Shown here: piece after piece, positions 2,996-22,292 of the stretch | How positions within the stretch are numbered: the first letter of the stretch is position 1 | Layout of the letters: each line of letters begins with the position of its first letter | Assembly (NCBI GenBank): GCA_048938445.1 | Contig: JBHLME010000064.1 | Span: 1 to 24,544 of the forward strand | Length of the DNA stretch: 24,544 bases | Direction: 5' to 3' | Source: Promethearchaeota archaeon | GTDB taxonomy: Archaea > Asgardarchaeota > Lokiarchaeia > Sigyniarchaeales > SOKP01 | Position numbers and translations under genes: made by a program | Notes under the pieces: generated by a model | The model's database searches: none | What the model was told of the DNA's origin: nothing | What the model saw: only the letters and a program-made list of their open reading frames with translations

Positions 2996-3790
2996 TCATT
3001 CATGTGATAACAATTTTTTGGTTAGGTCAGATGCTGATTCTGCAGATGTATATATTTTTTTCAAGTACTTAAATGTTGGATCCCCCGTTTTACTTTTCAT
3101 CATAGCAAGTTCGGCATTTCCCTGTATCGAATTTAATAGATCTAATAGATGTTGTATGTTAGATTGAATCAAATCTTTTTCTTTATTAATTTGTTTACGA
3201 TCTATATTTTCAATGATTTTATAACTTCCTCCACTTTTAGCAAGTACAAATTGATGAGAATTAGCTATATCTAAGAGTTCAAATTTATTAAACCTAGTAA
3301 TTGGATAAGAACAAATTGCAATCATCCTATAATCTCCAATGATATTAGATATATGAATTTCATAATCAATGAAACGCTCTAAATCCCTTTTATCTATCCA
3401 ACGAATGTCCCCCGTTACTCTTAAACCATTATATCCCTTTGTTATTGCCTGATTGAGATAATAAGTCCCCTTTTCAATAACTTTTTCGAGATTAAGTACA
3501 TCCTTTTTTAAATACCATTTTGTATAAGGTATAATTTTTATTTGTCCTTTTTCTAAACAATCGTCAAAATCAGTTACAGCTTCTCTTAAAGCATCTTTAG
3601 CAAATTCAGGACTCAAATCTTCTGAAGTAATCCAAATGCAAAATTCATTATTTTTCAGACCTACTTGAAAATATGGTACTAAGAGATTAAGTAATTCATA
3701 TTTGTTATGATAAAAATAACAAAAATGTGTTCCCCAAATTAATTTTTTAACGATTTCAATCTCGCTATAAGTAGTATTATTTGAAATCAA
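2996..3790 (-). CDS. MEDS sensory-domain protein with a C-terminal HisKA-like helical tail and no ATPase domain
   Basis: WGTHFCYFY, GLKNNEFCIWI, GYNGLRVTGD, ICSYP and SHQF match the MEDS domain; the tail IQGNAELAMM...SASDLTKKLL resembles a kinase dimerization domain. TTG start uncertain. Confidence 0.8.
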   Translation of the reverse strand: MISNNTTYSEIEIVKKLIWGTHFCYFYHNKYELLNLLVPYFQVGLKNNEFCIWITSEDLSPEFAKDALREAVTDFDDCLEKGQIKIIPYTKWYLKKDVLNLEKVIEKGTYYLNQAITKGYNGLRVTGDIRWIDKRDLERFIDYEIHISNIIGDYRMIAICSYPITRFNKFELLDIANSHQFVLAKSGGSYKIIENIDRKQINKEKDLIQSNIQHLLDLLNSIQGNAELAMMKSKTGDPTFKYLKKIYTSAESASDLTKKLLSHE

Positions 3791-3823
3791 AATTTCAAAA
3801 TCATCATTTTTAATTTTTTACAG

Positions 3824-3867
3824 TTTCGTAATATTTAATGTTCTTCAATTTTTTAAATATTATGAAA
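3824..3867. repeat. 15-bp inverted repeat (one mismatch, 14-nt spacer) upstream of the MEDS gene
   Basis: TTTCGTAATATTTAA (3824-3838) versus TTAAATATTATGAAA (3853-3867). Function unknown; AT-rich context. Confidence 0.45.
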
Positions 3868-3987
3868 ATTCAATAATTTAAGTCATATCACCTTTGAAGT
3901 GAAATATATTTCTAAAGGGAAACCATTAATTTATGAATTTAATTTTTTAAATAGCATTTCCATTTAATAGCATTATATTGCTATATT

Positions 3988-4503
3988 TCAAATATCCTTC
4001 TCAATAACACTATCAATTGCTTTAACATAATCAGGTTTGTATTTCGTTTTTAATAAGTTAGCATTACCCAAAGCAATTAATTTCCGGTTCATATTCAATA
4101 TTTGTGATGCGGCATGAATAATATTTCGTCCTTCACGAACGAGACTACCTTTTACACGAATTTTTTCGCCAACTTTAACTTTTCCTAGATAATCTACATG
4201 AAAATCAATTGTTATTAAAAAGCCCTCATAACCCAGAGTTGCCGTCATCATACCAATTGTATCATCCATCAATCCACACTGCATTCCACCATGAAGTAAC
4301 CCTGTTGGATTAGCCCATTCGGGTCTAACTTCGAATTCTAACTCGATTTCGCCCCTATCTGCATGAATAATTGAACCATTCAACCATTTTGAAAAAGGAG
4401 GAATCGGCCCGGGAAACTCACCAACATTTCTTCCTTTTATAGCATTAAACAATTTAAGAATCCTCTCAGATCTTCTCTTGATTTTTTTTTCATCCTCAAT
4501 CAA
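3988..4503 (-). CDS. PaaI-family hotdog-fold acyl-CoA thioesterase
   Basis: NPTGLLHGG...LMDD motif, TIDFHVDYL, 171 aa. Confidence 0.9.
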   Translation of the reverse strand: MIEDEKKIKRRSERILKLFNAIKGRNVGEFPGPIPPFSKWLNGSIIHADRGEIELEFEVRPEWANPTGLLHGGMQCGLMDDTIGMMTATLGYEGFLITIDFHVDYLGKVKVGEKIRVKGSLVREGRNIIHAASQILNMNRKLIALGNANLLKTKYKPDYVKAIDSVIEKDI

Positions 4504-4739
4504 TTGAATCCCTTCTAAAATTATTCCATTTTTATATAGGTTTAATTAAATTATAACCTAATATGTTAAGCACATAAATTAATTAAATCTTTTTAATATA
4601 TAATTGAATGTCTTGAAATTCTAAATTTAGTGTTTAAATATATTTTGATAAATTTTAGGAAACAGTTTTAAATTATAAAGTTTTATTTGTTATTTAGTTA
4701 TTCAAATTCATAAAAAATAGGTTAAGAATGTAGATTTAA

Positions 4740-5537
4740 ATGTATTCAAATACTCAAACTTTTGAAGTAGAAAACAAAGATTTAGAAATTATTCAACAAG
4801 AAATTAAAAATCTTTTACAAAATACGTTAGATTTCAATACTATGACTGAAAGTACCATCTCTTTTTTTGATAAAAAAACTTCTATAGAAGAATTAAAAAA
4901 GAATAAAATAGTAATTCGACAAGATCAAAAAAAGTTATTGATTGAAGTTATGGGCAATTTAACCGAAGGTCAAAATAATGTTTTATGGCAAGAATTAAAC
5001 AAAATAGCAAAATTATTTAAAAGTAAACCACAGATTAAGATATCAGAAAAAGAACTCATCAACAATATTATTAAGCGAATCAAAGCAGAAGGCTTCAACT
5101 TTAAAATAGAAGATGCTCAAAAATTTATTATTAATTTTCAAAGAAAATTCAATCGATTACCAGAAATAAACGAGATTGAATCAATTGGTTATGGATATAT
5201 TATGATGCTTAATCAAGAAATGTCAGCCGATAATATTGATTATGAAACAGTATGGAAAGAGAAATTTTCTGAAGATCTTGAAGAGTCTTTAGTTGAGACT
5301 TCATCAAACAAAAAAGGCCTGCTAATTAAAGAAAAAAATGATGAATTGTTAACTGAAAACGGATATTTAGAAGTATCAAAGCCATTAGGGAGGCGTGTAT
5401 GTCCTAAATGTGGTAATCAAAGTGTAAACTCAATCCGTGAATTGGAAGATAAGAACTTCATAATTTCCGAATTTCCAAAAATGTATGGAAAGAAATATCA
5501 GTGCCGAATGTGTAATTGTGAATGGAAAGAAATATAA
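4740..5537 (+). CDS. Hypothetical protein with C-terminal zinc ribbon
   Basis: 265-aa ORF; C-terminal CPKC...YGKKYQCRMC..EW; acidic linker before it. Confidence 0.75.
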   Translation: MYSNTQTFEVENKDLEIIQQEIKNLLQNTLDFNTMTESTISFFDKKTSIEELKKNKIVIRQDQKKLLIEVMGNLTEGQNNVLWQELNKIAKLFKSKPQIKISEKELINNIIKRIKAEGFNFKIEDAQKFIINFQRKFNRLPEINEIESIGYGYIMMLNQEMSADNIDYETVWKEKFSEDLEESLVETSSNKKGLLIKEKNDELLTENGYLEVSKPLGRRVCPKCGNQSVNSIRELEDKNFIISEFPKMYGKKYQCRMCNCEWKEI

Positions 5538-5640
5538 AAATAAATAACTAATCAGTAATTTAGTTATAATGTAAGATATTTTTATTTTTTTAACTATTTT
5601 TTTAATTAAATATTAACTAATGATTTATTTTTTAATTTAA

Positions 5641-7077
5641 ATGACGTATTTCGAGTGTTCTGACATAAACGTAAAAGACATTTCCTTTATTAATAATATT
5701 AAATCAATGGCCGTTATCGGTACATCTAAAAAACGAAGTTTCTTCTTTTTAAAAAACCATCAAGAAAATTTTAAAGGAAAGCTTTATGCTGTAAATCCAA
5801 CAATAGAAGAAATTCCTGGATTCGATAAAAATTATATATATCCTTCATTAAAGGATATTCCTGGTGAAGTTGATTTTGTTTTCATAGCTGTTCCGCCCTC
5901 ATTAATTTTGGAAGTAATGGATGAGTGTGTTGAAAAAGGTGTAAAACTAGCAACTGTTTTTACAGCAGAATTTTCAGACTCCGGGACAAAAGAAGGTTTA
6001 GAATTAGAGAAAGAATTACTAAGAAGAGCTAAAAATAAAGTTCGTTTACTAGGCCCTAATGGATTAGGCCTGTATTATCCTAAATTAGGTATAGCATGGA
6101 GGCCTAAATTTTCAGCAGAGAGCGGCAACATCTCATTTTTGGCACAATCTGGAGGATTATGTAATTTGGTAATTTACGGTGCTAATCATTTGGGAATGCA
6201 TTTTAGCAAGGTTTTCTCTTTCGGAAATGGTGCTGATTTAGATTTTGTTGATTTGCTCTATTTTTTAATTAACGATCCCGAGACTAATATTATCCTATGT
6301 TATATTGAGGGAATTAAAAAAGAAAGAGGATATGAATTAACAAAAGTTTTAAAACGAAATAAAAAACCTATAGCAATTGTAAGAGGTGGTCAAACTAAAA
6401 TTGGTTCCATCGCTGCCAAAACACATACAGCTACAATTTCAGGAGAAAATCAGATTTGGAGAGCGATTTTCCAACAAAACAATATAATTGAATTAGATTC
6501 AATAGAACAAATAATATCTTTTGCTTATTTAATAAAATCATATGGCCTTTTTGAGTTAAATAATCTCGCCCTTCTTAGTAGTAGTGGAGGATATGGAGTT
6601 ATTTTAGCCGACTTAATTGAAAAAAAGGGAATAAATATTCCTCAGTTCAGTCCTGACATTCAAAATCAAATAACATTACAATTTTATCTACTCGGGACAA
6701 GCTTCAAAAATCCATTAGATGTTTCTGCTCAAGTTTTCAATAGTGAAGCCATTTATAAAATTATAGAGCTAGTTCTAAAAGATAAAAGGATAGATGGACT
6801 AGTAGTAGATTTGCCCAGTTATTATTTCAATAGTGATTATTCATTTAGGATTGAATTAGATCAAAATTATGAAAATAAAATGATTGAAGCTTTAGCCTTG
6901 GGTCATAAATATAGAAAACCCTTAATTCCAATAATAAAACGAATTAATTGTCCTGAAGATTGGAATAGACTCTTTAAAAAGTTATCTGAAAGGAACGTTC
7001 CAGTATTTGACGATCCTCAAGAATTTATACCTTTATTACCTAAAATCTCAAAATTTATACGAAAAACAAAAAAGTAG
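5641..7077 (+). CDS. acdA: Acyl-CoA synthetase (NDP-forming) alpha-type subunit, CoA-binding
   Basis: MAVIGTS, YAVNP, YPSLKDIPGEVD, RLLGPNGLG, AQSGG, SFGNGADL, phospho-His motif AAKTHT, NPLD. No ATP-grasp domain in this ORF. Confidence 0.88.
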   Translation: MTYFECSDINVKDISFINNIKSMAVIGTSKKRSFFFLKNHQENFKGKLYAVNPTIEEIPGFDKNYIYPSLKDIPGEVDFVFIAVPPSLILEVMDECVEKGVKLATVFTAEFSDSGTKEGLELEKELLRRAKNKVRLLGPNGLGLYYPKLGIAWRPKFSAESGNISFLAQSGGLCNLVIYGANHLGMHFSKVFSFGNGADLDFVDLLYFLINDPETNIILCYIEGIKKERGYELTKVLKRNKKPIAIVRGGQTKIGSIAAKTHTATISGENQIWRAIFQQNNIIELDSIEQIISFAYLIKSYGLFELNNLALLSSSGGYGVILADLIEKKGINIPQFSPDIQNQITLQFYLLGTSFKNPLDVSAQVFNSEAIYKIIELVLKDKRIDGLVVDLPSYYFNSDYSFRIELDQNYENKMIEALALGHKYRKPLIPIIKRINCPEDWNRLFKKLSERNVPVFDDPQEFIPLLPKISKFIRKTKK

Positions 7078-7090
7078 AGTGTGTTAGAAA

Positions 7091-8797
7091 TTAAAAAGTC
7101 TCTTGAGGTTTATATTTTCCATATATTTCTCTTAGAATATCACAAATTTCTTGAATTGTAGCGTATTCCTTAACGAGAACGATAATTATTGGCATAATAT
7201 TATCAGGAGTTTGAGCAATTTTTTTTAATTCCTTCAATTTTTCTTTTATCACATTATTATTGCGTGTTTTTTTCAATTCGCTTAGCCCTGTAATTGATTT
7301 TTTCTCGACATCAACATCACACTTAAATGCTTTTATTTCAGATTTTTCCTCAGTTTTAAAAGAATTTACACCAATGACTTTGTCAGTACCATTTTCTATT
7401 TTTTTTTGAATCAGGTATGCGTTATTTTGGATTTCATTTTGTATAAAACCCTTTTTAATAGCAATTGGCATTCCACCCATTTCATCTATTTTTTGAATAT
7501 ACTTCATTGCCTCTTCCTCTAATCTTTTTGTTAAAAATTCTAGATAATATGACCCACCTATTGGATCGATAACATCAGCTATTCCTGTCTCGTGCGCTAT
7601 TACTTGTTGAGTTCTTAAAGCAATTCTCACAGCATCTTCAGTGGGAAGACAGAGCGCCTCGTCAAATGAGTTGGTATGTAATGATTGAGTACCTCCAAGA
7701 ATGGCAGCTAATGCTTGTAAAGTAACTCTAACTATATTTACTTGCATTTGAGAAGCTGTCAAGGCTACTCCTGCAGTCTGAGTATGAAATCTTAAACTTA
7801 ATGATTTGGGATCTTTAGCATTAAAACGTTCTTTCATTATTTTTGCCCATAATCTTCTAGCTGCTCGAAATTTTGCTATTTCTTCAAAAATATTGTTATG
7901 AACACAGAAAAAGAATGAAATCCTTGGAGCAAACTCGTCAATATCAATTCCTCTCTTAAGTACTTCTTCAACATAAGTGATGCCATTAGCCAAAGTAAAA
8001 GCAATCTCTTGAATAGCATTAGCTCCTGCTTCCCGCATATGATAACCACTTATACTTATGGTATTAAACTTTGGTAGATATTTAGAACAATATTCAATCA
8101 CGTCCACTGTCAATCTTAAAGAAGGTTCTGGGGGATAAATATATGTCCCTCTAGCTATATATTCTTTTAAAATATCATTTTGAACAGTCCCCATTAAATG
8201 TTCAGGTTTCACTCCCTGTTTCTCACCGATAGCAATGTACATTGCAAGCAAAACGGCGGTAGGGGCATTAATAGTCATACTAGTTGAAATCTTATCTAAC
8301 GGAATTCCATCAAATAGGTTTTCAAAATCTTTTAAAGAATTAATAGAAACACCTACTTTTCCAACTTCACCACAGCATAAATCATTGTCAGAATTATATC
8401 CCATTTGAGTAGGTAAATCAAAAGCGATCGATAATCCTTTCTGTCCCTGTGATATTAAGTATTTAAATCTCTTGTTAGATTCAACAGCATCACCAAATCC
8501 TGCATATTGTCTCATTGTCCATAGTCTTCCACGATACATATTCGAATAAACACCTCTTGTGAAGGGATATTTTCCAGAATATCCAATATCTTCAAAAAAA
8601 TTAATATCTTTTATTTCCTCAGGTTCATAGAGCTGTTTTAATGGGATCCCTGAAGGTGATTTAATTATTTCTTTTAAATCCTCTTTTTTAATAGATTTAT
8701 CTAAAACATTCTTTTTCCAAACTTTCTTTTGAGAATTAATATCATCATTATTTTTAATAGGTATTGTAATTTTTAATCTTCCTCCTAATTCATTCAA
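7091..8797 (-). CDS. mcmA1: Methylmalonyl-CoA mutase, substrate-binding (large) subunit; B12-binding domain not included
   Basis: YPFTRGVY, WTMRQYAGFG, AFDLPTQMG, QNDILKEYIARGTY, ISGYHMREAG, LHTNSFDEAL, DPIGGSYYLE. Tyr in RQY and Arg in ARG match MCM rather than isobutyryl-CoA mutase. No DxHxxG motif. Start codon uncertain. Confidence 0.92.
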   Translation of the reverse strand: MNELGGRLKITIPIKNNDDINSQKKVWKKNVLDKSIKKEDLKEIIKSPSGIPLKQLYEPEEIKDINFFEDIGYSGKYPFTRGVYSNMYRGRLWTMRQYAGFGDAVESNKRFKYLISQGQKGLSIAFDLPTQMGYNSDNDLCCGEVGKVGVSINSLKDFENLFDGIPLDKISTSMTINAPTAVLLAMYIAIGEKQGVKPEHLMGTVQNDILKEYIARGTYIYPPEPSLRLTVDVIEYCSKYLPKFNTISISGYHMREAGANAIQEIAFTLANGITYVEEVLKRGIDIDEFAPRISFFFCVHNNIFEEIAKFRAARRLWAKIMKERFNAKDPKSLSLRFHTQTAGVALTASQMQVNIVRVTLQALAAILGGTQSLHTNSFDEALCLPTEDAVRIALRTQQVIAHETGIADVIDPIGGSYYLEFLTKRLEEEAMKYIQKIDEMGGMPIAIKKGFIQNEIQNNAYLIQKKIENGTDKVIGVNSFKTEEKSEIKAFKCDVDVEKKSITGLSELKKTRNNNVIKEKLKELKKIAQTPDNIMPIIIVLVKEYATIQEICDILREIYGKYKPQETF

Positions 8798-9146
8798 TTA
8801 ATTTAAAAACATAACCATAAATTTCATTACCATCAAGATTATCACAAATTTTTTCATATACAGGTTTTAGTTTCATTCCAATGCGTAAATTTTCTTTAGG
8901 AGATATCTGTCCGAGAGCTTTTATACCATTTTTAAATTGTACAACACCAAGAGCGTATGGTCCTTTGTCTATAAATTCCATAGGTGGCGCTTTTAATAGC
9001 GTATATGTCAATAACACACAAATGCCATTAGCTTCTATTTTATCAAATGTGTTATTTTTACATTTTATACATCTTAGATGGCTTATATCTTGTAAATAAC
9101 CGCATTTTTTACACTTCTTATTAACTAAATTTTCTTTGTTACTCAT
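8790..9146 (-). CDS. DUF35/ChsH2-like Zn-ribbon plus OB-fold acyl-CoA-binding protein
   Basis: CKKCG...CIKC followed by G..LTYT...PYALGVV...G.KALG...IGM; directly downstream of a thiolase-fold gene. Confidence 0.9.
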   Translation of the reverse strand: MSNKENLVNKKCKKCGYLQDISHLRCIKCKNNTFDKIEANGICVLLTYTLLKAPPMEFIDKGPYALGVVQFKNGIKALGQISPKENLRIGMKLKPVYEKICDNLDGNEIYGYVFKLIE

Positions 9147-9152: not shown

Positions 9153-10385
9153 TCACATCCTTTCAACTAAAATTGAGATAATATTATTTCCAAATCCTCC
9201 GAAATTGCATGTTATTCCCGTTTGGGCATCTGAAACCTGTCTTTTTCCGGCTTCCCCTCTTAGTTGCCACACTAATTCAACAACTTGAGCGACACCTGTC
9301 GCTCCAAGTGGATGACCTCTAGCCTTTAAACCTCCAGAGGGATTGATAGGAATTTCTCCATCAATTTCTGTCCGACCTTCATGTGCAGCCATAGCGCCTT
9401 CTCCTTTTTTAAAAAACCCGATATCTTCACTTTCCACAACTTCTAAAATTTCAAATGCATCGTGAAGTTCTGCCACATCAATGTCCTTTGGAGTTTTTTT
9501 TGCCATTCTATAAGCTTGATCTGAACTAACTCTTAATGCATTTAAGACAGTAATGTCCTCTCTTTCATATATAATATGTGTATCAGTTGCTTGACCAATT
9601 CCGGAGATTAAAACTGGATTATCGCAAAATTTTTTCGCGATTTCAGCATTACATAAAACAATTGCAGCAGCGCCATCCGAAATAGGACAAATATGAAAAA
9701 GCCGCAATGGATCTGCTATTATCGGATTAATTTTATCATCATTGAGAAATTCATAAATCGTATTCCAATGACCCTTTCCTTTTTTAACAGCACTTTCCAT
9801 AAAATCCTCAATTTTTTTTTGAAAATGAGCAATAGGATTCAATGCTCCATTCCGATGGTTTTTTATGGCAATATCCGATAGCCATTCTAATTTTGCGTTA
9901 TATTTTTCAAGATAAATTCGAGATAGTAAACCTGCAAAAGAGGGAAGTGATGCGCCATGCTTTCTCTCTGCTTGATGATGGGTAAGAGTTGCGACAGCTG
10001 AAGTAATATATCCTGGAGTGGAAATATGTGTCATCTTTTCGCCTCCAACAACCAATACCATAGAATTCATTCCTGAAGATATTGCGTGGAACCCTGCTTT
10101 TATCGCAGAACCCCCACTAGCAGGTCCATTTTTCAAATGATCAGCAGCAGCAGGGATTAATCCTAATTTATCGACAACTATACTTGCAATTCCCGATAGG
10201 TGATTAAACTCCCCAGGACACATTGCTCCAACATAAACAGATTCAAATTCTTCATCACTTGTATTAGAGTCATTGATCGCTTCGAGAGAGGCTTCGCATA
10301 ACAAATCGATCAAATTTTTATCTTCTATTTTTCCAAATCTTGTATGCCCTATTCCTATTATTGCTACTTGATTCAATACTACCAA
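9153..10385 (-). CDS. SCP2/archaeal-type thiolase-fold protein lacking catalytic cysteines
   Basis: VAIIGIGHTRFG, VGGEKMT, KNHRNGALNP.AH, PISDGAAA, ELHDAF, INPSGGLKARGHPLGATG. NGPAS replaces ACAS and HDAF replaces HDCF. Confidence 0.88.
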   Translation of the reverse strand: MVVLNQVAIIGIGHTRFGKIEDKNLIDLLCEASLEAINDSNTSDEEFESVYVGAMCPGEFNHLSGIASIVVDKLGLIPAAADHLKNGPASGGSAIKAGFHAISSGMNSMVLVVGGEKMTHISTPGYITSAVATLTHHQAERKHGASLPSFAGLLSRIYLEKYNAKLEWLSDIAIKNHRNGALNPIAHFQKKIEDFMESAVKKGKGHWNTIYEFLNDDKINPIIADPLRLFHICPISDGAAAIVLCNAEIAKKFCDNPVLISGIGQATDTHIIYEREDITVLNALRVSSDQAYRMAKKTPKDIDVAELHDAFEILEVVESEDIGFFKKGEGAMAAHEGRTEIDGEIPINPSGGLKARGHPLGATGVAQVVELVWQLRGEAGKRQVSDAQTGITCNFGGFGNNIISILVERM

Positions 10386-10555: not shown

Positions 10556-10565
10556 AAAAAAAAAA
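10556..10565 (-). terminator. Oligo-T tract, candidate archaeal intrinsic terminator of the kor-hdrA transcript
   Basis: T10 on the minus strand about 80 nt after the hdrA-mvhD stop. Confidence 0.4.
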
Positions 10566-10646: not shown

Positions 10647-13013
10647 TTATTTTAAAGCTATTCTACTCATGTTTTTAACAATTCCAGCAAATCTTTTTCC
10701 TTCTGCGGCTGACATCCATTCGATGACAAATCGTTCGTCGGAAATATTATTCTTTTTCATCCAATTCCTAATTTCTTTCTCCCGCTTTAACGCAAAATCA
10801 TTACCAGTGATGTAATGACAATCTTGAGGGTGGCAACCAGTCAGCATTACTGCTCCGGCACCACGCTTAAAGCAATGTTTAATAAAATCGATATCAACTC
10901 GCCCAGAACACATGGTTCTAATAATTCTAGTGTTAGTCGGATATTGGATTCGACTGGTTCCAGCCAAGTCTGCCCCAGCGTAGGAACACCAATTGCAAGC
11001 AAAAATTAATAGTTTTTGTGAAGCATTTTCATTAAGGGCTATATCAATTTGACGAAGAATCATGGCATCTGTAAAGTTTGTCATAGTAATAGCGTCTGTA
11101 GGGCAATCAGCTGCGCACGTTCCACAACCTTTGCATAAGATAGGTCTAACATAAGCTGGAGTTTTTTTTTCACGATCGACGGAAATTGCATTATAAGGAC
11201 ACCGAGGCACACATGTTCCACAACTCGTGCATTTTTCAATATCAACAAATGCGTACAATGGTTCTACATGGTATTCTCCTTTTGAAAGTAATTTTGCAAT
11301 ACGACCTGCAGAAGCGCTAGCTTGAGTGACAGACTCACGAATATCCTTTGGAGATTCGGCTCCTCCTGCGATAAAAATGCCATCTGTAGGTGTATCCACC
11401 GGTCTAAGTTTTGGATGAGCTTCAATGTAAAAGCCTTTCTTATCTTTTGCTATTGGGAATGGGATTGATTCAGATGACCCTTCTGCACCAATAGAAAGAA
11501 CAACTAAATCAAATACTTCAGATAATATAGTTTCAGTACTTATATCTTCTGCAGTTATTATGAGATTTTTAGTACTTGGATCTTCTTTAATTTGGCCTGG
11601 ACGACCACGAATATATAAAACTCCCTGTTCTCTTGAACGCAAATATAATTCTTCAAATCCTTTGCCAAAAGCTCGAATATCGACATAAAAAATAGCAACT
11701 TCAACATCAGGCCAATGCTCCTTTATTAAAAGACTATCCTTAATACTCTCCATACAGCAAAAGTTAGAACAGTACGGATTAAATCTAAGATCTCGCGAAC
11801 CTACACAATTAATAAACGCTACTTTTTTTGGTTTCTTGAGATCACTTGGTCTCACTAATTCACCGAAGGTTGGTCCTGCAGCATTGATTAATCTTTCAAA
11901 TTCGAAGGTTGTAATCACATTAGGATACTTACCCCATCCAAATTCTGGGATTTTAGAAGCATCAAATTTTTCAAATCCAACGGCAACAATAATGGCTCCA
12001 ACATGAAATTTATATAATTTCTCAGTATCTTCATAATTGATTGCTTCTTTTTCACATTCTGATATACATTTTCCACAGGTTAAAGGTGATAAACCTAAGC
12101 AAGTTTTATCGTCAATGATATAACTGGCTGGTACTGCTTGAGGATAGGGGATATAAATTGCTTTTCTCCAACCTAAATTTCCAGAGTACTCGTCTATAAC
12201 ATTCTCAGGACAAATATCAACGCAATCACCGCAAGCAGTGCAAAGTTCTTCATCAACATATCGCGGTTTCTTTTTAATTGTGACATCAAAATTACCGATA
12301 TAACCTGATATTTCCGTTACTTCGGCATTAGTGATAAGGTCGATATTCTTATGATTGCCAACATCAGCCATCTTCGGACCTAAAATACATATCGAGCAAT
12401 CCATAGTTGGGAAAGTTTTATCAATAAGCGCCATATTACCACCAATAGTGGGCGATTTCTCAACAAGTATGATTTTATAATCGTCAGCTAAATCTAATGC
12501 AGCTTGAATTCCCGCTACACCACCTCCAATAATTAGGACACGTTTTTTAACAGGAACAATAATATCATCAACAGCTTCCAATAATTCAGCTTTAGCAATT
12601 GCCATCTCAATTAAATCTTTAGCTTTTTCTGTAGCTTTTTTATTCTCCGAGAGATGTACCCAACTACACTGTTCCCGAATGTTAGCAACCTCTACTAAAG
12701 AAGGATTAATCCCAACCCTCCTCAGTATTTTTTTCCACGTATGGCCATGTAATCGCGGGCTACAGGCAGCTACAACGATTTTTTCTATACCCTTTTCCTT
12801 AAGAGCCGCCTCAATCTCATCCTGTCCTGGATCAGAACATGTGTAAGTATTGACTTGAACAAGTTTTACTCCTGGAATATGTTCAATTTCTTCTGCTAAT
12901 TGATCAATATCAACAGTACCACCAATATTTTTACCACATTTGCAGAGGAATACACCAATATTCTGGTCAATCTTAGGTTTTTCAGCACTTTCAGTCAATT
13001 TTTTATACACCAA
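10647..13013 (-). CDS. hdrA: Heterodisulfide reductase subunit A fused to a C-terminal MvhD [2Fe-2S] domain
   Basis: GVFLCKCG.NI, AACSPR, NIREQCSWVH, GGGVAG (FAD), KTFPTMDCSIC, inserted and C-terminal ferredoxin motifs, CVGSRD..YCSNFCC, EAHPKLRPV; then MvhD motifs FACNWCSYAGADLAG, MCSGRVD, GCHPQDCHY, WMSAAEG. Confidence 0.95.
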   Translation of the reverse strand: MVYKKLTESAEKPKIDQNIGVFLCKCGKNIGGTVDIDQLAEEIEHIPGVKLVQVNTYTCSDPGQDEIEAALKEKGIEKIVVAACSPRLHGHTWKKILRRVGINPSLVEVANIREQCSWVHLSENKKATEKAKDLIEMAIAKAELLEAVDDIIVPVKKRVLIIGGGVAGIQAALDLADDYKIILVEKSPTIGGNMALIDKTFPTMDCSICILGPKMADVGNHKNIDLITNAEVTEISGYIGNFDVTIKKKPRYVDEELCTACGDCVDICPENVIDEYSGNLGWRKAIYIPYPQAVPASYIIDDKTCLGLSPLTCGKCISECEKEAINYEDTEKLYKFHVGAIIVAVGFEKFDASKIPEFGWGKYPNVITTFEFERLINAAGPTFGELVRPSDLKKPKKVAFINCVGSRDLRFNPYCSNFCCMESIKDSLLIKEHWPDVEVAIFYVDIRAFGKGFEELYLRSREQGVLYIRGRPGQIKEDPSTKNLIITAEDISTETILSEVFDLVVLSIGAEGSSESIPFPIAKDKKGFYIEAHPKLRPVDTPTDGIFIAGGAESPKDIRESVTQASASAGRIAKLLSKGEYHVEPLYAFVDIEKCTSCGTCVPRCPYNAISVDREKKTPAYVRPILCKGCGTCAADCPTDAITMTNFTDAMILRQIDIALNENASQKLLIFACNWCSYAGADLAGTSRIQYPTNTRIIRTMCSGRVDIDFIKHCFKRGAGAVMLTGCHPQDCHYITGNDFALKREKEIRNWMKKNNISDERFVIEWMSAAEGKRFAGIVKNMSRIALK

Positions 13014-13014
13014 A

Positions 13015-13884
13015 TCATCTATTTTTTGATTTTTTACTTTGAACCGATTTCTTTAATTCGATTAATCTTTTTGAAAAACCTTCCCTTTTTTCATCAATAA
13101 ATTCACCACATATAATAATTCCTTCTTTGAAGTCTAAGGTTGCTTCATGAGGGGGCCAATTAGTCTTAATTCTAATTTGCTTTTTCAACCATTCAAGCAT
13201 CTCTACAGCATCACCAAGCTTATTTTTATTACCGTATTGAACGAAACAAGGAGCAAGCACCTCGATGAAGCTAAAACCTTCATTATCAATACTTTTCAAA
13301 ATGCTTTTCTGTAATCTAAGCGTATCATATCCTGGCCATCGAGCGACATATGTTGCACCTGAAGCTACTGCTAAGCTTACTAAATTAAAAGGAGGTTCCA
13401 AATTTCCATAGGGAGTTGTTTGTGTTATGTCGCCAATTTGTGTTGTAGGAGCAACTTGCCCCCCTGTCATTCCGTATACATTATTATTAACACATAATAC
13501 AGTAATTTCAATATTTCTTCTCGCTGCGTGAATAAAGTGATTACCCCCTATTGCAAAAAGATCACCATCTCCTGATAATACAATAACATTTAACTTGGGA
13601 TTCGCGAGTTTTAATCCTGTGGCAAAAGGAATAGCTCTTCCATGGGTAGTATGAAAGGCTGGCGCTTTAAAGCAACCACTTGATCGCCCTGTACATCCTA
13701 TACCAGAAACTATAGCATAGTCTTTTGTTGTTAAATCTCTTTCTCTTAGACATGTGGTTATAGATGTAATTATTGTTCCAATTAAGCACCCAGGACAAAA
13801 GATAAAACGATTTAAGTTCAACCAGTCTTTTAGTGGATGTTCAAGGAGATTTTCTGGTTTTGTCAATTGATTTGTATGTGTCAT
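13015..13884 (-). CDS. korB: 2-oxoglutarate/2-oxoacid:ferredoxin oxidoreductase beta subunit
   Basis: FCPGC, SGIGC, HTTHGRA, SGDGD, NNNVYGMTGGQ, IEVLAPC; complete TPP and Fe-S motifs. Confidence 0.93.
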   Translation of the reverse strand: MTHTNQLTKPENLLEHPLKDWLNLNRFIFCPGCLIGTIITSITTCLRERDLTTKDYAIVSGIGCTGRSSGCFKAPAFHTTHGRAIPFATGLKLANPKLNVIVLSGDGDLFAIGGNHFIHAARRNIEITVLCVNNNVYGMTGGQVAPTTQIGDITQTTPYGNLEPPFNLVSLAVASGATYVARWPGYDTLRLQKSILKSIDNEGFSFIEVLAPCFVQYGNKNKLGDAVEMLEWLKKQIRIKTNWPPHEATLDFKEGIIICGEFIDEKREGFSKRLIELKKSVQSKKSKNR

Positions 13885-15044
13885 AAATTAACCTCCTTTA
13901 TCAGTTTCTTATATGTAAATTTTGGACTAAAAGGAATAGTTGTAGGAATTGAAATCCCAGAGACATCAAACAAATGCTGGAATCTTTGGACTTCGCGAAT
14001 AATCATTCCATAGTTCATCTCACTTACTATTACTTTTGATATTCCTTTACTGCCTATTTTTTCCATTAATTCATCTGGAAATGGCCATATGCTTTTCAAT
14101 CGAACGAATCCTATCTTATGACCTTCTTTACGAACTTGTTCAATCGCTTCCGGTACTCCTCGCGCATTAATTCCATATGCTAATACAAGAACATCAGAAT
14201 CATCTATATATTTTTCCTCCCAATCATTAATCTCTGGTCTTGCATTGATAATTTTATCGCAAAGTCTTTTAATTAATTTTTCTGCTGTTTCAGGTGACAT
14301 ATCTGGATTCCCTTCTTCATCATGTGTAAGCCCAGTAACGTAAAAATGATAATCAGTCCCTGCGATGGCCATTCCAGGAACGAGATCATCATCAAATACC
14401 TCAAAAGGTTTATATTTTTCTGGTGGAACTTGAGGTTTTTTACGTTCTACTAAATCAATATTTAAATGATAATATACAGGCTCCATCATTTGACCCAAGA
14501 TTCCATCTGATGCAACAATTACAGGCGTCCGATATTTTTCGGCCAAATTAAAAGCACGGATAGTTAAATCGTACATTTCTTGTACTGTTGAGGGAGCCAA
14601 TACTATAATTTGATAATCTCCATGAGATGCATATCTAGTTTGGTATATATCAGACTGGGAAGCATTAGTCGGTTGTCCCGTACTTGGACCACCTCTCATA
14701 ATAGTTGTAATAACTAAAGGTGTTTCTAACATAACTCCCAAGCCAATATTTTCAGCCATGAGAGAAAGACCAGGGCCCGAAGTTGCAGTCATAGACTTTA
14801 AACCAGCATAGGAAGCTCCAAGACAGCAATTAATTGAAGCCAACTCATCTTCCATTTGAATAAATGTTCCATTAACTTTTGGGAGTTGTCTTGACATATA
14901 AGCAGCTATCTCCGATGAGGGGGTGATAGGATATCCTGCAAAAAATCGGCAACCTGCCGTAATAGCTCCTTCTGCACAAGCATAATTTCCAGAGGTTAAA
15001 ATTGCTTTAGTTTGAGATTTTTTTGGATTATTTCTAAGATTCAT
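13881..15044 (-). CDS. korA: 2-oxoglutarate/2-oxoacid:ferredoxin oxidoreductase alpha subunit
   Basis: GYPITPSSE, QMEDE, TATSGPG, RGGPSTGQPT, TGLTHDE.G, IWPFP, EMNYG; 4-nt ATGA overlap with korB. Confidence 0.93.
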   Translation of the reverse strand: MNLRNNPKKSQTKAILTSGNYACAEGAITAGCRFFAGYPITPSSEIAAYMSRQLPKVNGTFIQMEDELASINCCLGASYAGLKSMTATSGPGLSLMAENIGLGVMLETPLVITTIMRGGPSTGQPTNASQSDIYQTRYASHGDYQIIVLAPSTVQEMYDLTIRAFNLAEKYRTPVIVASDGILGQMMEPVYYHLNIDLVERKKPQVPPEKYKPFEVFDDDLVPGMAIAGTDYHFYVTGLTHDEEGNPDMSPETAEKLIKRLCDKIINARPEINDWEEKYIDDSDVLVLAYGINARGVPEAIEQVRKEGHKIGFVRLKSIWPFPDELMEKIGSKGISKVIVSEMNYGMIIREVQRFQHLFDVSGISIPTTIPFSPKFTYKKLIKEVNL

Positions 15045-15321
15045 TGATAATACCTCCTTGTAAGTCTATTTCATTAATAAAAATTGAACTCGTGGGACAC
15101 AATCGCTCACATTGTTTACATCCTAAACAATTATCTGGATTTTTTATTACCACATAATGTAGCATACGACTATTAGTATCATCACTAGGCTCCAATAACT
15201 CTTTAGGACAGAATACTACACATACTTTACAGCCATCACATTGTTCAGAATCAATAATAACTTCGTATTTTTTTTGAGGTTGAGGAGGTGGTAAGATGGG
15301 CGCTCGTTTAGATTCTAACAT
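15034..15321 (-). CDS. korD: OFOR delta subunit (2x[4Fe-4S] ferredoxin)
   Basis: CDGCKVCVVFCP and CLGCKQCERLCP; overlaps the korA start; internal GGAGGT can serve as the korA SD. Confidence 0.9.
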   Translation of the reverse strand: MLESKRAPILPPPQPQKKYEVIIDSEQCDGCKVCVVFCPKELLEPSDDTNSRMLHYVVIKNPDNCLGCKQCERLCPTSSIFINEIDLQGGIINES

Positions 15322-15497
15322 TTTTTCTCTCCTTCTTGTAAGTTTAAACTTCCAGTTATATTCATCCTAATTGTGCTTTAAAAATAATAATTTCTCTTTT
15401 AAATTTGCTTTTTTACAGTATAAGTAATTCCTACAGAAAATATATTAAAATAAAGGAGAAAAAAGTAATCTCTCTATTTAAATAAGACTAGTTCAAT

Positions 15498-16124: not shown

Positions 16125-17414
16125 TTAGGAAGATAACGATTTAAAATAGTTTCTTAGACCACGCGACATTATAAATTGCTGAATTTGACGAGATCCGCCA
16201 ATTATTTCTTGAATTCTTGATATATTCAAATAATCATGCATAAGTGTATTATCACAGAGCCCTGCACCTCCCATTAAGTTAGCGGCTTCGTAACACACTT
16301 TTTTAGATAATAATGCACAAGAATATTTATATTGACTTGCTGCTCCAACCATTGATTGTGAGATGTGGGCAGGTAATTCTCCACCATATTTCTCAACTTT
16401 ATCGTCATAAGCTTCACAAAATTTTAATAATCCATGAGTAATTGATGTTGTTCTAGCCCATAAGTCAGTTAAAAGAAATCCTACTCCTTGAAAAAGCAAA
16501 ATTTCTTGATCAAATTGTTTTCTCATATTAGCATAAATAACAGCATGAGATAAAGCGCCCCAACTTTCACCAACTCCACGAAGAGCAATTGCAATTCTTT
16601 CTGGGATTAATCCTTCAAAGAGATGTTCACGACCTTTTCCCACTTCAGCTAATACATAATCTTTTGGAATTCTAAGGTTAACTAAACGTTCCTTTCCTAG
16701 ATAGAGTTTCGGTACCCATGGTATATAAATACGTTCACAATTCCAACCTTCCCAGGAAGTATTTATTAAGAATTGAGCCATCAGATTGCCATTATTCTTT
16801 TCCGCAGTCGCATACGCGACAGCCCATTTTGCTTTTGGAGCATTCGTGTTATAAATTTTTTCACCATTTAAAATGAAACTAGCATCTTCCTGCTCTTCAC
16901 ATGTAGTTAATTGGTGCACTGCATCAGATCCTCTTTCTGGTTCAGTGATTAAAAGGCATCCGAGAGAATCTCCAGTAACTAATTCTTTTAAAGCTTCTAA
17001 TCTAATCGGGATGTTTTTATGATGCCAATAGATTGGATTTACACATATAACAGTTGCACCAGTTATCATAGCGAATTGAGGATCAAATAAATCAAGTGCG
17101 ATTAATCTCATAAAATCTGCAACTAAACCATGCTCTTTATAATTTAAATCAACACATTCATAAGAATGTAGTCTTGTAATTAAACCTTCTTTACCAAAAT
17201 CGGAACACCAATCATAAATATCTTCATCAGGTCCATGAGTTATCTGTTTCTCTTTTTCAAAATTTAAACAAAAGTGCTGGACTCTTTTTAGATAATCTAA
17301 TTGCTCTTCTGATAATACAGAAAATAAATTATCATTTAGAAATTTATATCTATTTTTAAGGTTTAATTTTTCAAGAATTTCGTTATTAATAGCTTGTGTC
17401 TTAAATTTTGACAT
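16125..17414 (-). CDS. Acyl-CoA dehydrogenase (IVD/LCAD-like catalytic arrangement)
   Basis: ITEPERGSD, LNGEKIYNTN, RKQFDQ.I..FQGV, LMGGAG; C-terminal EIIGGS in place of YEGT, with Glu in LIPERI. Confidence 0.9.
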   Translation of the reverse strand: MSKFKTQAINNEILEKLNLKNRYKFLNDNLFSVLSEEQLDYLKRVQHFCLNFEKEKQITHGPDEDIYDWCSDFGKEGLITRLHSYECVDLNYKEHGLVADFMRLIALDLFDPQFAMITGATVICVNPIYWHHKNIPIRLEALKELVTGDSLGCLLITEPERGSDAVHQLTTCEEQEDASFILNGEKIYNTNAPKAKWAVAYATAEKNNGNLMAQFLINTSWEGWNCERIYIPWVPKLYLGKERLVNLRIPKDYVLAEVGKGREHLFEGLIPERIAIALRGVGESWGALSHAVIYANMRKQFDQEILLFQGVGFLLTDLWARTTSITHGLLKFCEAYDDKVEKYGGELPAHISQSMVGAASQYKYSCALLSKKVCYEAANLMGGAGLCDNTLMHDYLNISRIQEIIGGSRQIQQFIMSRGLRNYFKSLSS

Positions 17415-19079: not shown

Positions 19080-22000
19080 GTGAGTGATGTGAAAAATAAA
19101 GAATCAGCTTCAGATGATCGCTTCAAAATAATCTTTAAAAATATTCCTATTCCATCATATATTTGGCAAATAAATCAAAATGATTTAATCCTTATCGATT
19201 TTAACTTTGCTGCTGAAGAAATTACAAATAATCAAATAAAAAATTACTTAGGAGTTAAAGCTTCAGAATTATATAAGAAGAAGCCAAAAATTTTTGAAGA
19301 TTTGCAGCGCTGTGCAAAAGGGCAGATCAATTTTTCTAAAGAGATGAAATATCACATGAAATCTACTGATATTGAAAAAATTTTTGATGTTAAATTTGTT
19401 TTTGTTCAGCCTGATTTAGTTTTGGTTCATACAAAAGATATTACTGAGCGTAAACAAACCAAAGTTAAATTAAATGAATCTGAAGAAAATTTAAAAAAAT
19501 TAAATCAAGAATTAGAACAAATGGTCGAAGTTAGGACTCAAAAATTAAAAGAATCGGAAGAAAAATTTAGAAGAATTACTGAACAATCTATTTTAGGTAT
19601 TTGTATAATGCAGGATGATGTAATTAAATATTCAAATCAGAAATTAGCTGATATCTTCGGTCTCCAAATGCAAGAAATACTAAATCTGAAACCTGGAGAA
19701 TTTATTAATACTATTGCTCCTGAATATCGAGAATTTGTTATGGAACAAGCAAGAAAAAAACAAGAAGGAGACAAAGATACAATAACCCAGTATACATACA
19801 AGGGGATAAAAAAATCAGGTGAAGAAATCTGGATTGAAAATTATTCAAAAACAATTGAATATGAACGTAGACTAGCAGATTTAATTACTCTTATTGAAAT
19901 AACAGATAAAATAAAAGCAGAAAAAAAATTAAAGGAATCTGAAGAAAAATATCGGTTACTATTTGAAAATATGAACGATCTAGTAGTAGTTCATAATGAT
20001 AAGTTCGAGTTTGAATATATTAATGAATCAGTTTTTATGAGTGTACTAGGATATTCAAAAGCTGATTTAATTGGTAAAACTAATGCAGAGATCATTCATC
20101 CCAACGATCTCAAAGGAGCAGTATTAGCTGCTAGTAAAATTCTAAGAAAAGGCACTGGATCTTATCAGGCAAGGTATCTACATAAAAATGGAAGTATTAA
20201 GTGGTTTGATACAACAGGAGGGATTTTTATTAATAGCAAAGGAGAAAAGAAAATTATTCGGATAATGAGAGATATTACCGAACGTAAGCAAGCGGAACTA
20301 AAATTAATCCAAGAAAAAAAATTCTCTGAGAGTTTGATTAATAGTAGTGTTGATGGAATACTTGCTTATGATCTTGAATGTCACTATACAATCTGGAATC
20401 CAGGAATGGAACGCATATCCGGAGTTAAAAAAGAGGACGCTTTGGGTAAATGTGCTTTTGAGGTATTTCCATTTTTGAAAGATATTGGTGAAGATAAGTT
20501 TTTCAATGATGCTCTAAATGGAAAACATGTTATTGCGAAAGACAGACCATATAAAGTACCTGAAAGTGGAAATACAGGATTTTTTGAAGGATATTATTCA
20601 CCTTTATATGACGAAACAGGTAAAATCGTAGGAGGTGTAACTATTATACGCGATATCAGCGATCGAAAGAATTCGGAACACAAATTAAAAGAACATGCTA
20701 GACAGATTGAATTTCTAAACCAAATTATAATAGCTGGCAATAAATCTAAAAGTTTATCTTTGTTATTAGAAAATGTCTTAAGTTCTACCATGGATTTTAT
20801 GAATTTTGAAGCTGGTGGAATATATTTAATTAATGAACCGAAAAAGATTGCTGAACTTGTATTTCATAAGGGGCTTTCTTCTGATTTTATAGAAAAAGCA
20901 AAACAGATAAAGATTGATGTAAGCCCTTTTAATACTGTTTTCATTGATGGAAAGTCTACTTTTGAAGATGATTATTCAAGGTTTAGACCTGTCCAATCAG
21001 AAAAAACAGGATTCTTATCTTCGGCTAGTATCCCGTTATTTTCGAAAGGTAAAATTATTGGGGCCTTAAATATTGCATCAAAAAATTGTCATTTTTTCTC
21101 AGACATAGAAAAAGATACACTTAAATCTTTAGGAAGAGAAATTGGTACAATAATCACAAGAATGATGGCTGAAAAAAAATTAAATGAATCTGAGAAGCGA
21201 TATAGGCATCTTGCAAATGAATTGGAGATGATTTTGGACAATATTCCTAGTCTAGTATTTTCTAAAGATACAGAAAATAATTTTATTCGAGTTAATAAAT
21301 ATTTTGCTGATGCTCAGAATTTACGAAAAGAAGATATGGAAGGATTAAGCTGCTTTGATATATATCCAAAAGAACAAGCACAAGCGTATTGGGATGATGA
21401 TTTAGAAATAATAAATAGCAGACAACCAAAATTAAATATAGTAGAGCTACGAAAATCTGAAAAAGGTAAGAGATGGGTAAATACAAGTAAAATACCCTAT
21501 ATTGGTGAGGATGGTAATGTTAAAGGGATTATTGGTATTGCTACAGATATAACTGAAATTAAATTAGCAGAGGAAAAATTGAAAGAAATTAATAAATTAA
21601 AATCAGAATTAATGACAAGGACGTCCCATGAATTGAAAACTCCTCTTGTTTCAATTAAAGGTTTTGCGGATTTATTATTAAATATATATAACGATAAACT
21701 TGATAATGATGTGATTTCAATTGTAGAAAATATTAAGATGGGGTGTGAACGCCTTGAAGGTTTGATAAAGGATCTTTTAAAAAGTTCTCATTTAGAATCT
21801 GGTCAAATGCAATTGAATCTTTCTCGAGAGGATTTATCATTTCTAATAAAATTTTGTGTGAATGAATTAGAAAGGCTCGTAAAAGCAAGAAATCAAAAGA
21901 TTAAATTAAAAATACAAGAAAATTTAATAACTAATTTCGAGAAAGAACGAATTTACGAAGTAATTAGTAATCTAATAACTAACGCAATGAAAAATTCGCC

Positions 22001-22292
22001 GCCAGACCAAGAAATCACAATTCAAACAGAAATTAAAGATCATTTCTACATTGTTTCTGTAAAAGATAATGGTATTGGCTTTACAGAAGATGAAAAAGAG
22101 AAGATATTTACTCAGTTTGGAAAAGTCGAGCGCTACGGTCAGGGTTATGATCTTGAAATAGAAGGTACTGGTTTAGGATTATATATATCGAAAAAGATTA
22201 TAGAATTACACGGAGGAGAAATTTGGATGGAATCAGAAGGAAGAAATAAAGGATCCACTTTTTATTTTTCCTTACCTGTAATTAAAAGTTAA
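19080..22292 (+). CDS. Cytoplasmic multi-sensor histidine kinase (PAS x4 - GAF - PAS - HisKA - HATPase)
   Basis: Five PAS/PAC units ending DITERK/EITDK/DITERK/DISDRK/DITE; GAF (SASIPLFSKGKIIGALNI); SHELKTPL; NLITNAMK, DNGIG, GTGLGL. No transmembrane helix evident. Confidence 0.93.
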   Translation: MSDVKNKESASDDRFKIIFKNIPIPSYIWQINQNDLILIDFNFAAEEITNNQIKNYLGVKASELYKKKPKIFEDLQRCAKGQINFSKEMKYHMKSTDIEKIFDVKFVFVQPDLVLVHTKDITERKQTKVKLNESEENLKKLNQELEQMVEVRTQKLKESEEKFRRITEQSILGICIMQDDVIKYSNQKLADIFGLQMQEILNLKPGEFINTIAPEYREFVMEQARKKQEGDKDTITQYTYKGIKKSGEEIWIENYSKTIEYERRLADLITLIEITDKIKAEKKLKESEEKYRLLFENMNDLVVVHNDKFEFEYINESVFMSVLGYSKADLIGKTNAEIIHPNDLKGAVLAASKILRKGTGSYQARYLHKNGSIKWFDTTGGIFINSKGEKKIIRIMRDITERKQAELKLIQEKKFSESLINSSVDGILAYDLECHYTIWNPGMERISGVKKEDALGKCAFEVFPFLKDIGEDKFFNDALNGKHVIAKDRPYKVPESGNTGFFEGYYSPLYDETGKIVGGVTIIRDISDRKNSEHKLKEHARQIEFLNQIIIAGNKSKSLSLLLENVLSSTMDFMNFEAGGIYLINEPKKIAELVFHKGLSSDFIEKAKQIKIDVSPFNTVFIDGKSTFEDDYSRFRPVQSEKTGFLSSASIPLFSKGKIIGALNIASKNCHFFSDIEKDTLKSLGREIGTIITRMMAEKKLNESEKRYRHLANELEMILDNIPSLVFSKDTENNFIRVNKYFADAQNLRKEDMEGLSCFDIYPKEQAQAYWDDDLEIINSRQPKLNIVELRKSEKGKRWVNTSKIPYIGEDGNVKGIIGIATDITEIKLAEEKLKEINKLKSELMTRTSHELKTPLVSIKGFADLLLNIYNDKLDNDVISIVENIKMGCERLEGLIKDLLKSSHLESGQMQLNLSREDLSFLIKFCVNELERLVKARNQKIKLKIQENLITNFEKERIYEVISNLITNAMKNSPPDQEITIQTEIKDHFYIVSVKDNGIGFTEDEKEKIFTQFGKVERYGQGYDLEIEGTGLGLYISKKIIELHGGEIWMESEGRNKGSTFYFSLPVIKS

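Follow-up and report, generated by a model that had tools for sequence, protein, structure and literature searches.

Here we describe a gene cluster on a 24,544-nt stretch of DNA (hereafter the window) from a Promethearchaeota archaeon (assembly GCA_048938445.1, contig JBHLME010000064.1), in which the four subunit genes of a 2-oxoacid:ferredoxin oxidoreductase (OFOR), korC, korD, korA and korB, are followed by hdrA2, a gene encoding a fusion of HdrA and MvhD. The window makes up contig C186 of a genome bin of 4.6 Mb with ∼30% G+C, and the five genes lie in this order on its minus strand. From the list of open reading frames (ORFs), korC is separated from korD by a 176-nt gap, korD overlaps korA by 11 nt and korA overlaps korB by 4 nt (Table 1); as ORF calls take the first start codon, some overlaps are inflated. 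Both overlaps had been pointed out in an earlier note on this DNA and are confirmed by the ORF coordinates, and the operon drawn there, korDAB with hdrA at 10647..15321, holds for these four genes but leaves out korC.

The earlier note also placed the start of hdrA 1 nt after the korB stop. The longest ORF (788 aa) does open at a TTG 1 nt past the korB TGA, but the ATG start of six out of six relatives aligns with a second TTG at 12998 and the database gene call for HdrA2 is 783 aa, so that the true start is probably the TTG at 12998, 16 nt past the korB stop and preceded by GGTG 10 nt upstream. A 16-nt spacer is too short for a terminator or a promoter. At the other end of this gene group, GGAG stands 7 nt 5′ of the korD ATG.

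Kor and HdrA2 form the minimal version of a gene pairing that recurs in both archaea and bacteria. Among the 20 window ORFs of at least 80 aa, four of which have no Pfam match, Pfam found no CCG (HdrB), NiFe-hydrogenase, Fdh, Etf, Qmo or Apr domain, in agreement with the absence of Hdr, Mvh, Fdh, Qmo, Apr and Etf partners stated in the earlier note; nor did it find a ferredoxin gene in the kor-hdrA2 cluster.

Linkage of kor and hdrA2 across prokaryotes

A scan with HdrA2 as query against one genome per prokaryote species gave 79 loci of its closest relatives (47–87% identity), which are the top-scoring relatives and not a random sample, and which include related genomes that are not independent. 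With kor genes called by tblastn using the window proteins (at least 40% identity over at least half the length, within 7 kb), korA/korB accompanied hdrA2 at 56 of the 79 loci and shared its strand at 55. The linked loci cover Asgard archaea (8/8), Bathyarchaeia (18/22), Thermoplasmata and at least eight bacterial phyla, with counts of 11/18 in ‘delta’ lineages, 3/3 in Planctomycetota, 3/4 in Bacteroidota, 2/2 in WOR-3 and 4/6 in Chloroflexi. Three gene orders are found, namely korDAB-hdrA2 in relatives of the window, hdrA2-korDABC in Bathyarchaeia and korDABC-hdrA2 in ‘delta’ lineages, and tight junctions occur between hdrA2 and korD (19 loci, mostly −4 to +6 nt), between korB and hdrA2 (7) and between korC and hdrA2 (9). 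Maximum-likelihood (ML) trees of HdrA2 and KorA for 32 shared loci, built by a quick method, recovered the same groups; the L019 row of the KorA tree is a wrong OFOR paralogue and its long branch is artefactual. That the linkage recurs across domains, in three gene orders and often with tight gaps lends good support to the view that Kor and HdrA2 would act as a conserved functional unit.

Two observations on individual loci may be recorded here. In bacterial HdrA2 relatives, for example at L081:7400-7700, the second Cys position of the DCSIC motif (C209 in the window) is occupied by an in-frame TGA; 25 of the 79 loci are split at this TGA, beyond which the frame continues open, as for selenocysteine. 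At a deltaproteobacterial locus (bin85; L029, 5410-12500) a truncated korA (217 aa) accompanies korB and hdrA2 genes whose products are 71% and 73% identical to those of the window, genes for an HdrC-like protein, a 3-hydroxyacyl-CoA dehydrogenase and a thiolase follow hdrA2, and a bacterial AsmA/YhdP gene adjoins; this arrangement would stem from gene transfer between the domains or from a chimeric assembly.

Clustering of all ORFs of the 79 loci, with a Pfam scan of the representatives, brought out third modules that accompany Kor and HdrA2. An NfnB/GltD-like protein (∼480 aa, Fer4 + Pyr_redox_2) is encoded at 26 loci from Bathyarchaeia, Bacteroidota and one planctomycete (L027), and HdrC with HdrB at 16 loci, including Desulfomonile, other ‘delta’ lineages, WOR-3, Planctomycetota and one member of the Bathyarchaeia. 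An HdrL-like protein (∼1100 aa; 10 loci), MvhD (17) and a fused HdrCB or HdrD-like protein (27) are found in Desulfobacterales, Chloroflexi, Eisenbacteria and others. The eight Asgard loci hold no NfnB-like, HdrBC, HdrL-like, MvhD or HdrD-like module within 7 kb. Outside the lineage of the window an HdrBC/HdrD-like module, an NfnB-like module or both are almost always in the cluster, and the picture given in the earlier note, of an HdrA that here is free of Hdr partners, finds no support in the form given there.

Distribution within the phylum

In a sample of 201 genomes of the phylum (HdrA2 at E ≤1e-220, KorB at E ≤1e-70, the pair within 1.6 kb), KorB is encoded beside HdrA in 35, and the adjacency is thus clearly not confined to this genome, which the earlier note had named as a refutation. 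Of the 41 genomes in the family of the window, 10 carry both genes and, at the same thresholds, the other 31 carry neither. The remaining linked genomes belong to families f12 (16), f22 (4), f13 (3), f24 (1) and f27 (1). Their clusters differ in content: f22 has the minimal korDAB-hdrA2, f13 the bathyarchaeal type with an NfnB-like gene, and f24 korD-korA-korBC-hdrA2-hdrC-hdrB; in the f24 locus (L102:4935-6449) KorB and KorC are fused in one 504-aa protein. The family f12 operon is tightly packed, hdrC-hdrB-korD-korA-korB-korC-hdrA-mvhD-mvhG-mvhA, with HdrA unfused, and thus adds MvhDGA to the partners listed above; its layout is that expected if Kor were a module of an Mvh-Hdr complex.

Domains, family scores and cofactor residues

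All four OFOR subunit types are present and show the domains and Cys ligands of their kind, the delta subunit having 2 x CxxCxxCxxxCP (Pfam, alignments). KorA passes the generic 2-oxoacid:acceptor oxidoreductase alpha model NCBIfam NF006412 (496 bits, cut-off 411) and is the only Kor subunit to exceed an NCBIfam cut-off; its nearest solved chains are 1yd7_A and 8ys5_A. The nearest solved chain of KorB is 8ys5_C, the beta subunit of a 2-oxoglutarate:ferredoxin oxidoreductase (OGOR; 204 bits), with whose CWGC the Cys pair of the KorB CPGC aligns. Eight Cys of KorD are invariant across 34 relatives. Weak NCBIfam matches to PadG and PadI were also seen.

HdrA2 scores 1082.1 bits on NCBIfam NF040770 (HdrA2), a near miss of the cut-off of 1100. 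Its residues 17-658 match solved HdrA 5odc_A (722 bits) and residues 666-783 match the solved MvhD chains 9sw2_D, 7bkb_F and 5odc_D, giving the HdrA domain set with a fused C-terminal MvhD (FlpD) that defines type Ia. An orthologue (82%) is on record in Lokiarchaeum GC14_75, annotated plainly as HdrA. The Glu of FEFER and the Lys of MESIK, which the earlier note had linked to the bifurcating flavin by motif position, are E373 and K425 and align with E356 and K409 of 5odc_A; together with all Fe-S Cys of HdrA2 they are invariant in the 34 relatives. In HdrA, K409 contacts N5 of FAD and E356 positions K409, according to the available passages of PMC12054007.

Predicted complex of HdrA2 and KorD

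Folding of full-length HdrA2 with KorD by ESMFold2 gave a score of 0.55 and no interface, the best of three controls reaching 0.00; the runs had at least 73% of contacts in common and a partner pLDDT (predicted local distance difference test) of at least 77. Of 80 solved complexes in the benchmark for such folds, 58 attained the mark, as did 2 of 110 mismatched pairs, and among those reaching it scores of 0.60 or less came from 7 of the 80 solved complexes and from both passing mismatches. The earlier note had proposed multimer prediction of all Kor subunits with HdrA-MvhD; for the one pair folded, HdrA2 and KorD, the model is a weak indication that the two may touch.

Other features of the window

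The coordinates of the cluster and of its neighbours are collected in Table 1.

Table 1. Features of the kor-hdrA2 locus and neighbouring genes in the window
Feature	Position	Strand	Basis
korC, OFOR gamma, 189 aa	15498..16067	-	Pfam POR 79 bits
A/T-rich 20-nt element AAAAAGCAAATTTAAAAGAG in the korC-korD gap	15394..15413	-	Identical in five family genomes
korD, OFOR delta, 2 x [4Fe-4S], 95 aa	15034..15321	-	Pfam Fer4 x2
korA, OFOR alpha, 387 aa	13881..15044	-	POR_N 239 bits + PFOR_II
korB, OFOR beta, thiamine pyrophosphate (TPP) + proximal [4Fe-4S], 289 aa	13015..13884	-	TPP_enzyme_C 113 bits
hdrA2, HdrA-MvhD fusion, longest ORF 788 aa	10647..13013	-	FAD/Pyr_redox + Fer4 domains + FlpD
MvhD ([2Fe-2S]) domain of HdrA2, residues 669-783	10665..11009	-	Pfam FlpD 150 bits
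10-T run ∼85 nt past the hdrA2 stop	10556..10565	-	Sequence inspection
Thiolase	9153-10385	-	Pfam/NCBIfam
DUF35/OB-fold gene	8790-9146	-	Pfam/NCBIfam
Methylmalonyl-CoA mutase large subunit	7091-8797	-	Pfam/NCBIfam
ADP-forming acyl-CoA synthetase (ACD) alpha	5641-7077	+	Pfam/NCBIfam
Acyl-CoA dehydrogenase, adjoins korC upstream	16125-17414	-	Pfam Acyl-CoA_dh_1/M

The stop of hdrA2 is followed by an A/T-rich gap of 261 nt, in which the 10-T run is a possible archaeal terminator. The layout of the korC-korD gap is repeated in relatives L018, L019 and L055, and its 20-nt element is the same in the window and in L055, L018, L019 and L020 while the flanks differ; it occurs as a single copy in the 4.6-Mb genome with up to one mismatch allowed, and it resembles a BRE/TATA (B recognition element and TATA box) promoter or an operator that could serve korDAB-hdrA2. 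No tRNAs or Rfam matches were found in the window.

ACD alpha, the mutase and thiolases flank kor-hdrA2 in the window and in relatives, with a thioesterase and an acyl-CoA dehydrogenase also among the neighbours; ACD alpha adjoins the cluster in L055, L018 and L019 as well, and the acyl-CoA dehydrogenase has the same place in L055. A second OFOR of another type lies at 3-2823 (minus strand), with a gamma-delta fusion of 332 aa and an alpha subunit of 409 aa, an 83% identical copy of the latter being encoded on contig C95. The start of a further gene of this group is cut by the window edge; it has no Pfam match, and by tblastn it weakly resembles a segment that lies, in L027, downstream of a second OFOR alpha gene. 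A 1070-aa multi-PAS/GAF histidine kinase (19080-22292, plus strand) and a MEDS-domain protein (2996-3790, minus strand), both flanking metabolic genes, are possible regulators.

Remainder of the source genome

The source genome has ∼20 HdrA-like loci, several with an in-frame TGA, and more than 25 CCG proteins. On the other HdrA-bearing contigs, at least 13 in number, no OFOR alpha match was found, and only the HdrA of the window adjoins an OFOR; its Kor has no close paralogue in the genome (next KorA 32%). No relatives above 46% identity of the NfnB-like, HdrB, HdrC, HdrD-like or HdrL-like companions are encoded there. CofH and CofE exceed their cut-offs, and coenzyme F420 is for this reason probably available to the organism.

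Given ∼20 HdrA paralogues, one of them could stand beside an OFOR by accident or as a hitch-hiker with no functional tie, and a second HdrA-MvhD fusion does stand alone on contig C182 (2187-4556; L098), a 789-aa protein ∼44% identical to HdrA2 encoded between genes for an HD-domain and a CxxCxxCC-domain protein. We consider such an adjacency without function very improbable. Chance adjacency is contradicted by both the 79-locus and the 201-genome surveys, with the linkage extending over two domains, and was rejected, and the sole HdrA locus of the genome near an OFOR is that of the window. Beyond the CxxCxxCC-domain gene on C182 are genes for a DNA methylase and a Ras-family GTPase.

Pairs of hdrC and hdrB without an adjacent hdrA occur on C176 and on C158, where mvhG-mvhA-hdrC-hdrB (3442-7588) has neither hdrA nor mvhD alongside. 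The C158 cluster was considered as the partner of the window cluster and dropped, since its MvhA occurs in 50 of 61 family genomes and kor-hdrA2 in 10 of 41, and the two are not co-distributed. At the end of C176 (89558-91950) a 100% copy of the MvhA C-terminus lies beside diverged hdrCB genes and an IS605-type tnpB; this ‘orphan’ hdrCB looks like a duplication or assembly redundancy, the contamination of the bin being 8%. An HdrB tree (29 rows, quick method) was poorly resolved and assigned no partner to HdrA2. HdrA2 may still work with HdrBC encoded elsewhere.

Proposed electron path and its alternatives

We propose, and give an even chance to, a unit in which the OFOR hands electrons directly to the flavin chain of HdrA in place of free ferredoxin, most likely in the oxidative direction. 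Like the earlier note, we infer wiring through KorD, and the direction of electron flow, the acceptor, 2-oxoglutarate as substrate and physical contact are read here from gene anatomy, cofactor sites and linkage. Electrons would run from TPP to the KorB cluster, through the two KorD clusters and into the Fe-S chain and bifurcating FAD of HdrA2, entering it without a soluble carrier and at low potential. What does not vary among the clusters is Kor and HdrA with MvhD, whereas the third modules, which do vary, are of the kinds that known Hdr systems use for the high-potential branch (HdrBC) or for the mid-potential one (an NAD(P)H module or MvhAG). On the simplest reading common to all, Kor would occupy the low-potential position held elsewhere by free ferredoxin or, in methanogen supercomplexes, by formylmethanofuran dehydrogenase. 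A 2-oxoacid, probably 2-oxoglutarate, would be converted to acyl-CoA and CO2, and the acyl-CoA passed to the neighbouring mutase and ACD. The electrons could leave as a hydride from the flavin to a two-electron carrier, F420 or NAD(P), or by confurcation towards H2 with HdrBC and MvhAG encoded elsewhere.

The oxidative direction is favoured because the cluster has ACD alpha, thioesterase, mutase, thiolases and acyl-CoA dehydrogenase as neighbours both here and in relatives, and because cultured relatives are described, in the available text of PMC7015854, as amino-acid fermenters that oxidise 2-oxoacids derived from amino acids, with electrons leaving via Mvh-Hdr. The HdrA2 of Methanosarcina acetivorans alone passes electrons from reduced ferredoxin to F420, and with HdrB2C2 it reduces the heterodisulfide, as the available part of PMC5296606 reports.

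A number of points weigh against direct oxidative wiring. A donor at −500 mV can reduce ferredoxin, F420 or a disulfide without bifurcation, and the energetic gain of the oxidative direction is unclear. 2-oxoglutarate is a tentative choice of substrate for Kor, as KorB (233 bits, cut-off 364), KorC (73.5, cut-off 216) and KorD (55, cut-off 93) miss the NCBIfam OGOR models; the top NCBIfam match of KorC is OorC, under its cut-off. The score of the HdrA2-KorD model may stem from a resemblance of KorD to ferredoxin-like proteins that partner HdrA in solved supercomplexes, and the window may give an incomplete picture of the complex, since nearly all non-minimal clusters carry an HdrBC/HdrD-like or NfnB-like module. 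Korless loci count here too. At 23 of the 79 loci korA/korB was absent; most of these have less than 3 kb of upstream flank and korC or korD is still present at L037, L045, L056 and L069, but L046, L072 and L073 have ∼7 kb on both flanks and no kor gene, and L045 has full flanks with korD and korC only. In the phylum, 122 of the 201 genomes encode KorB homologues, for the most part distant from HdrA, so that Kor does not need HdrA, and family f7 has hdrA2-hdrC-hdrB without Kor, so that HdrA2 does not need Kor. The linkage is frequent, not obligatory.

Alternatively, the two enzymes may be co-expressed and unwired, Kor reducing free ferredoxin and HdrA2, with or without HdrBC from elsewhere, re-oxidising it in the manner of M. 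acetivorans HdrA2B2C2, in which case linkage would serve co-regulation only. Besides the f7 cluster, this account can point to the use of free ferredoxin in vitro by HdrA2 and HdrA2B2C2 in the available part of PMC5296606, to the ordinary look of KorD as a delta subunit, to the hdrCB pairs of the source genome lying away from hdrA, one of them beside mvhGA, and to the lack of any POR/TPP domain, and hence of a Kor-HdrA fusion, among the best 120 of 7964 HdrA2 relatives (433–1379 aa). Against it, the linkage persists through three rearrangements with 4-nt overlaps of hdrA2 with korD or korC, both genes are jointly present or absent in the family of the window, no ferredoxin gene was found in the cluster, and the HdrA2-KorD fold outscored its controls, a weak argument. 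We judge the unwired arrangement rather unlikely.

In the reverse direction, HdrA2 would bifurcate mid-potential electrons and send the low-potential one to Kor for reductive carboxylation of succinyl-CoA, which the adjacent mutase could provide, or of another acyl-CoA. The donors would be F420H2, NAD(P)H via the NfnB-like module or H2 via MvhAG docked on the MvhD domain, and the high-potential electron would go to HdrBC, an arrangement resembling the Hdr-Fwd/Fmd supercomplexes of methanogens. Operons such as that of f12, with the kor genes inside a full hdrCB…hdrA-mvhDGA set, and bacterial clusters that join Kor with NAD(P)H-type (NfnB/HdrL-like) and HdrD-like modules, and so three potential levels, would suit this direction, as would the invariance of the E356 and K409 equivalents. 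A similar proposal, of a complex with direct electron delivery to OGOR and the nearest one found in the literature, has been made for korABCD interleaved with flxABCD-hdrABC in the reductive tricarboxylic acid (rTCA) clusters of tubeworm symbionts and Chromatiaceae (available text of PMC6315080). In the window and its close relatives, however, neither a donor module nor HdrBC lies within 7 kb and the neighbours are of catabolic type (ACD alpha, thioesterase, acyl-CoA dehydrogenase, thiolases), and the cultured relatives are 2-oxoacid-oxidising fermenters in the description available in PMC7015854. For this organism we regard the reverse direction as unlikely.

A wider proposal is that OFORs are genuine modules of Hdr bifurcating machines, with a Kor-HdrA(-HdrBC-MvhAGD) supercomplex, widespread among anaerobes, that would link the bifurcating flavin to 2-oxoacid oxidation or synthesis with no free ferredoxin in between and, in Asgard archaea, the oxidation of amino-acid-derived 2-oxoacids to confurcating H2 production, the window holding its minimal two-module form. 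We advance this generalisation tentatively and with some doubt.

Relation to known systems

Phenylglyoxylate:NAD+ oxidoreductase PadEFGHI and the NADP-dependent 2-oxoglutarate oxidoreductase of Azoarcus are OFORs with an NAD(P)-reducing flavoprotein. The window shares with them an OFOR core and a flavoprotein that would lead to a two-electron carrier, and the bathyarchaeal and Bacteroidota clusters add an NfnB/GltD-like protein; the flavoprotein of the window differs in being of HdrA type, with the residues associated with bifurcation and an MvhD domain. With the KorABCD/OorDABC-type OFORs (8ys5, 1yd7) the window has the four subunits, their domains and Cys ligands in common, and adds a fifth cistron encoding a 783-aa Fe-S flavoprotein.

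The closest Hdr relative is M. acetivorans HdrA2 (HdrA2B2C2, type Ia), with the same domain order, Fe-S Cys, FAD site and equivalents of E356 and K409. HdrA2 of the window differs in scoring just under the family cut-off and in being encoded by the last gene of an OFOR operon in an organism that is not a methanogen, with no HdrB2C2 in the window; Methanosarcina hdrA2 is presumably not adjacent to hdrB2C2 either. The MvhAGD-HdrABC and Fdh/Vhu-Hdr-Fmd/Fwd supercomplexes (5odc, 7bkb, 9sw2; available text of PMC13518236) likewise have, attached to HdrA, an enzyme that in other settings would use ferredoxin, an attachment here predicted from genes. The enzyme attached would be a TPP-dependent OFOR instead of formylmethanofuran dehydrogenase, there is no polyferredoxin and the window is without Mvh and HdrBC genes. 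The rTCA clusters have kor together with an HdrA-containing module too, in the parts of PMC6315080 at hand, but with Flx (an NADH module) and a separate HdrA in HdrABC, in Gammaproteobacteria and for carbon fixation, whereas the window has a fused HdrA-MvhD and neither Flx nor HdrBC. The fused type Ia was set out in a survey of HdrA among archaea that metabolise methane, and the available passages of this survey mention no OFOR partners (PMC12054007). The earlier note knew of no characterised system with this pairing, and we found no description of OFOR with HdrA2 in the open-access full-text literature, a search that leaves subscription reviews and supplements, where a prior mention is possible, outside its scope.

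Significance

HdrA modules are known to receive electrons from modules for hydrogenase, formate dehydrogenase, F420H2 or NADH, and their low-potential electrons go to ferredoxin or formylmethanofuran dehydrogenase. We see in the present system an Hdr module whose partner belongs to a new class: if the wiring proposed here is true, a hard-wired TPP-dependent 2-oxoacid oxidoreductase would constitute a further class of Hdr complex. The cluster types found in nature offer an experimental series, from Kor with HdrA2 alone to Kor and HdrA2 with HdrBC, with an NfnB-like module or with MvhDGA. Such a complex would bear on the central carbon metabolism of Bathyarchaeia, sulfate reducers, syntrophs, Bacteroidota and Asgard archaea, and in the last of these on the passage of electrons from 2-oxoacids to H2, which in the available account of PMC7015854 is at the core of syntrophy models for the archaeal ancestor of eukaryotes.

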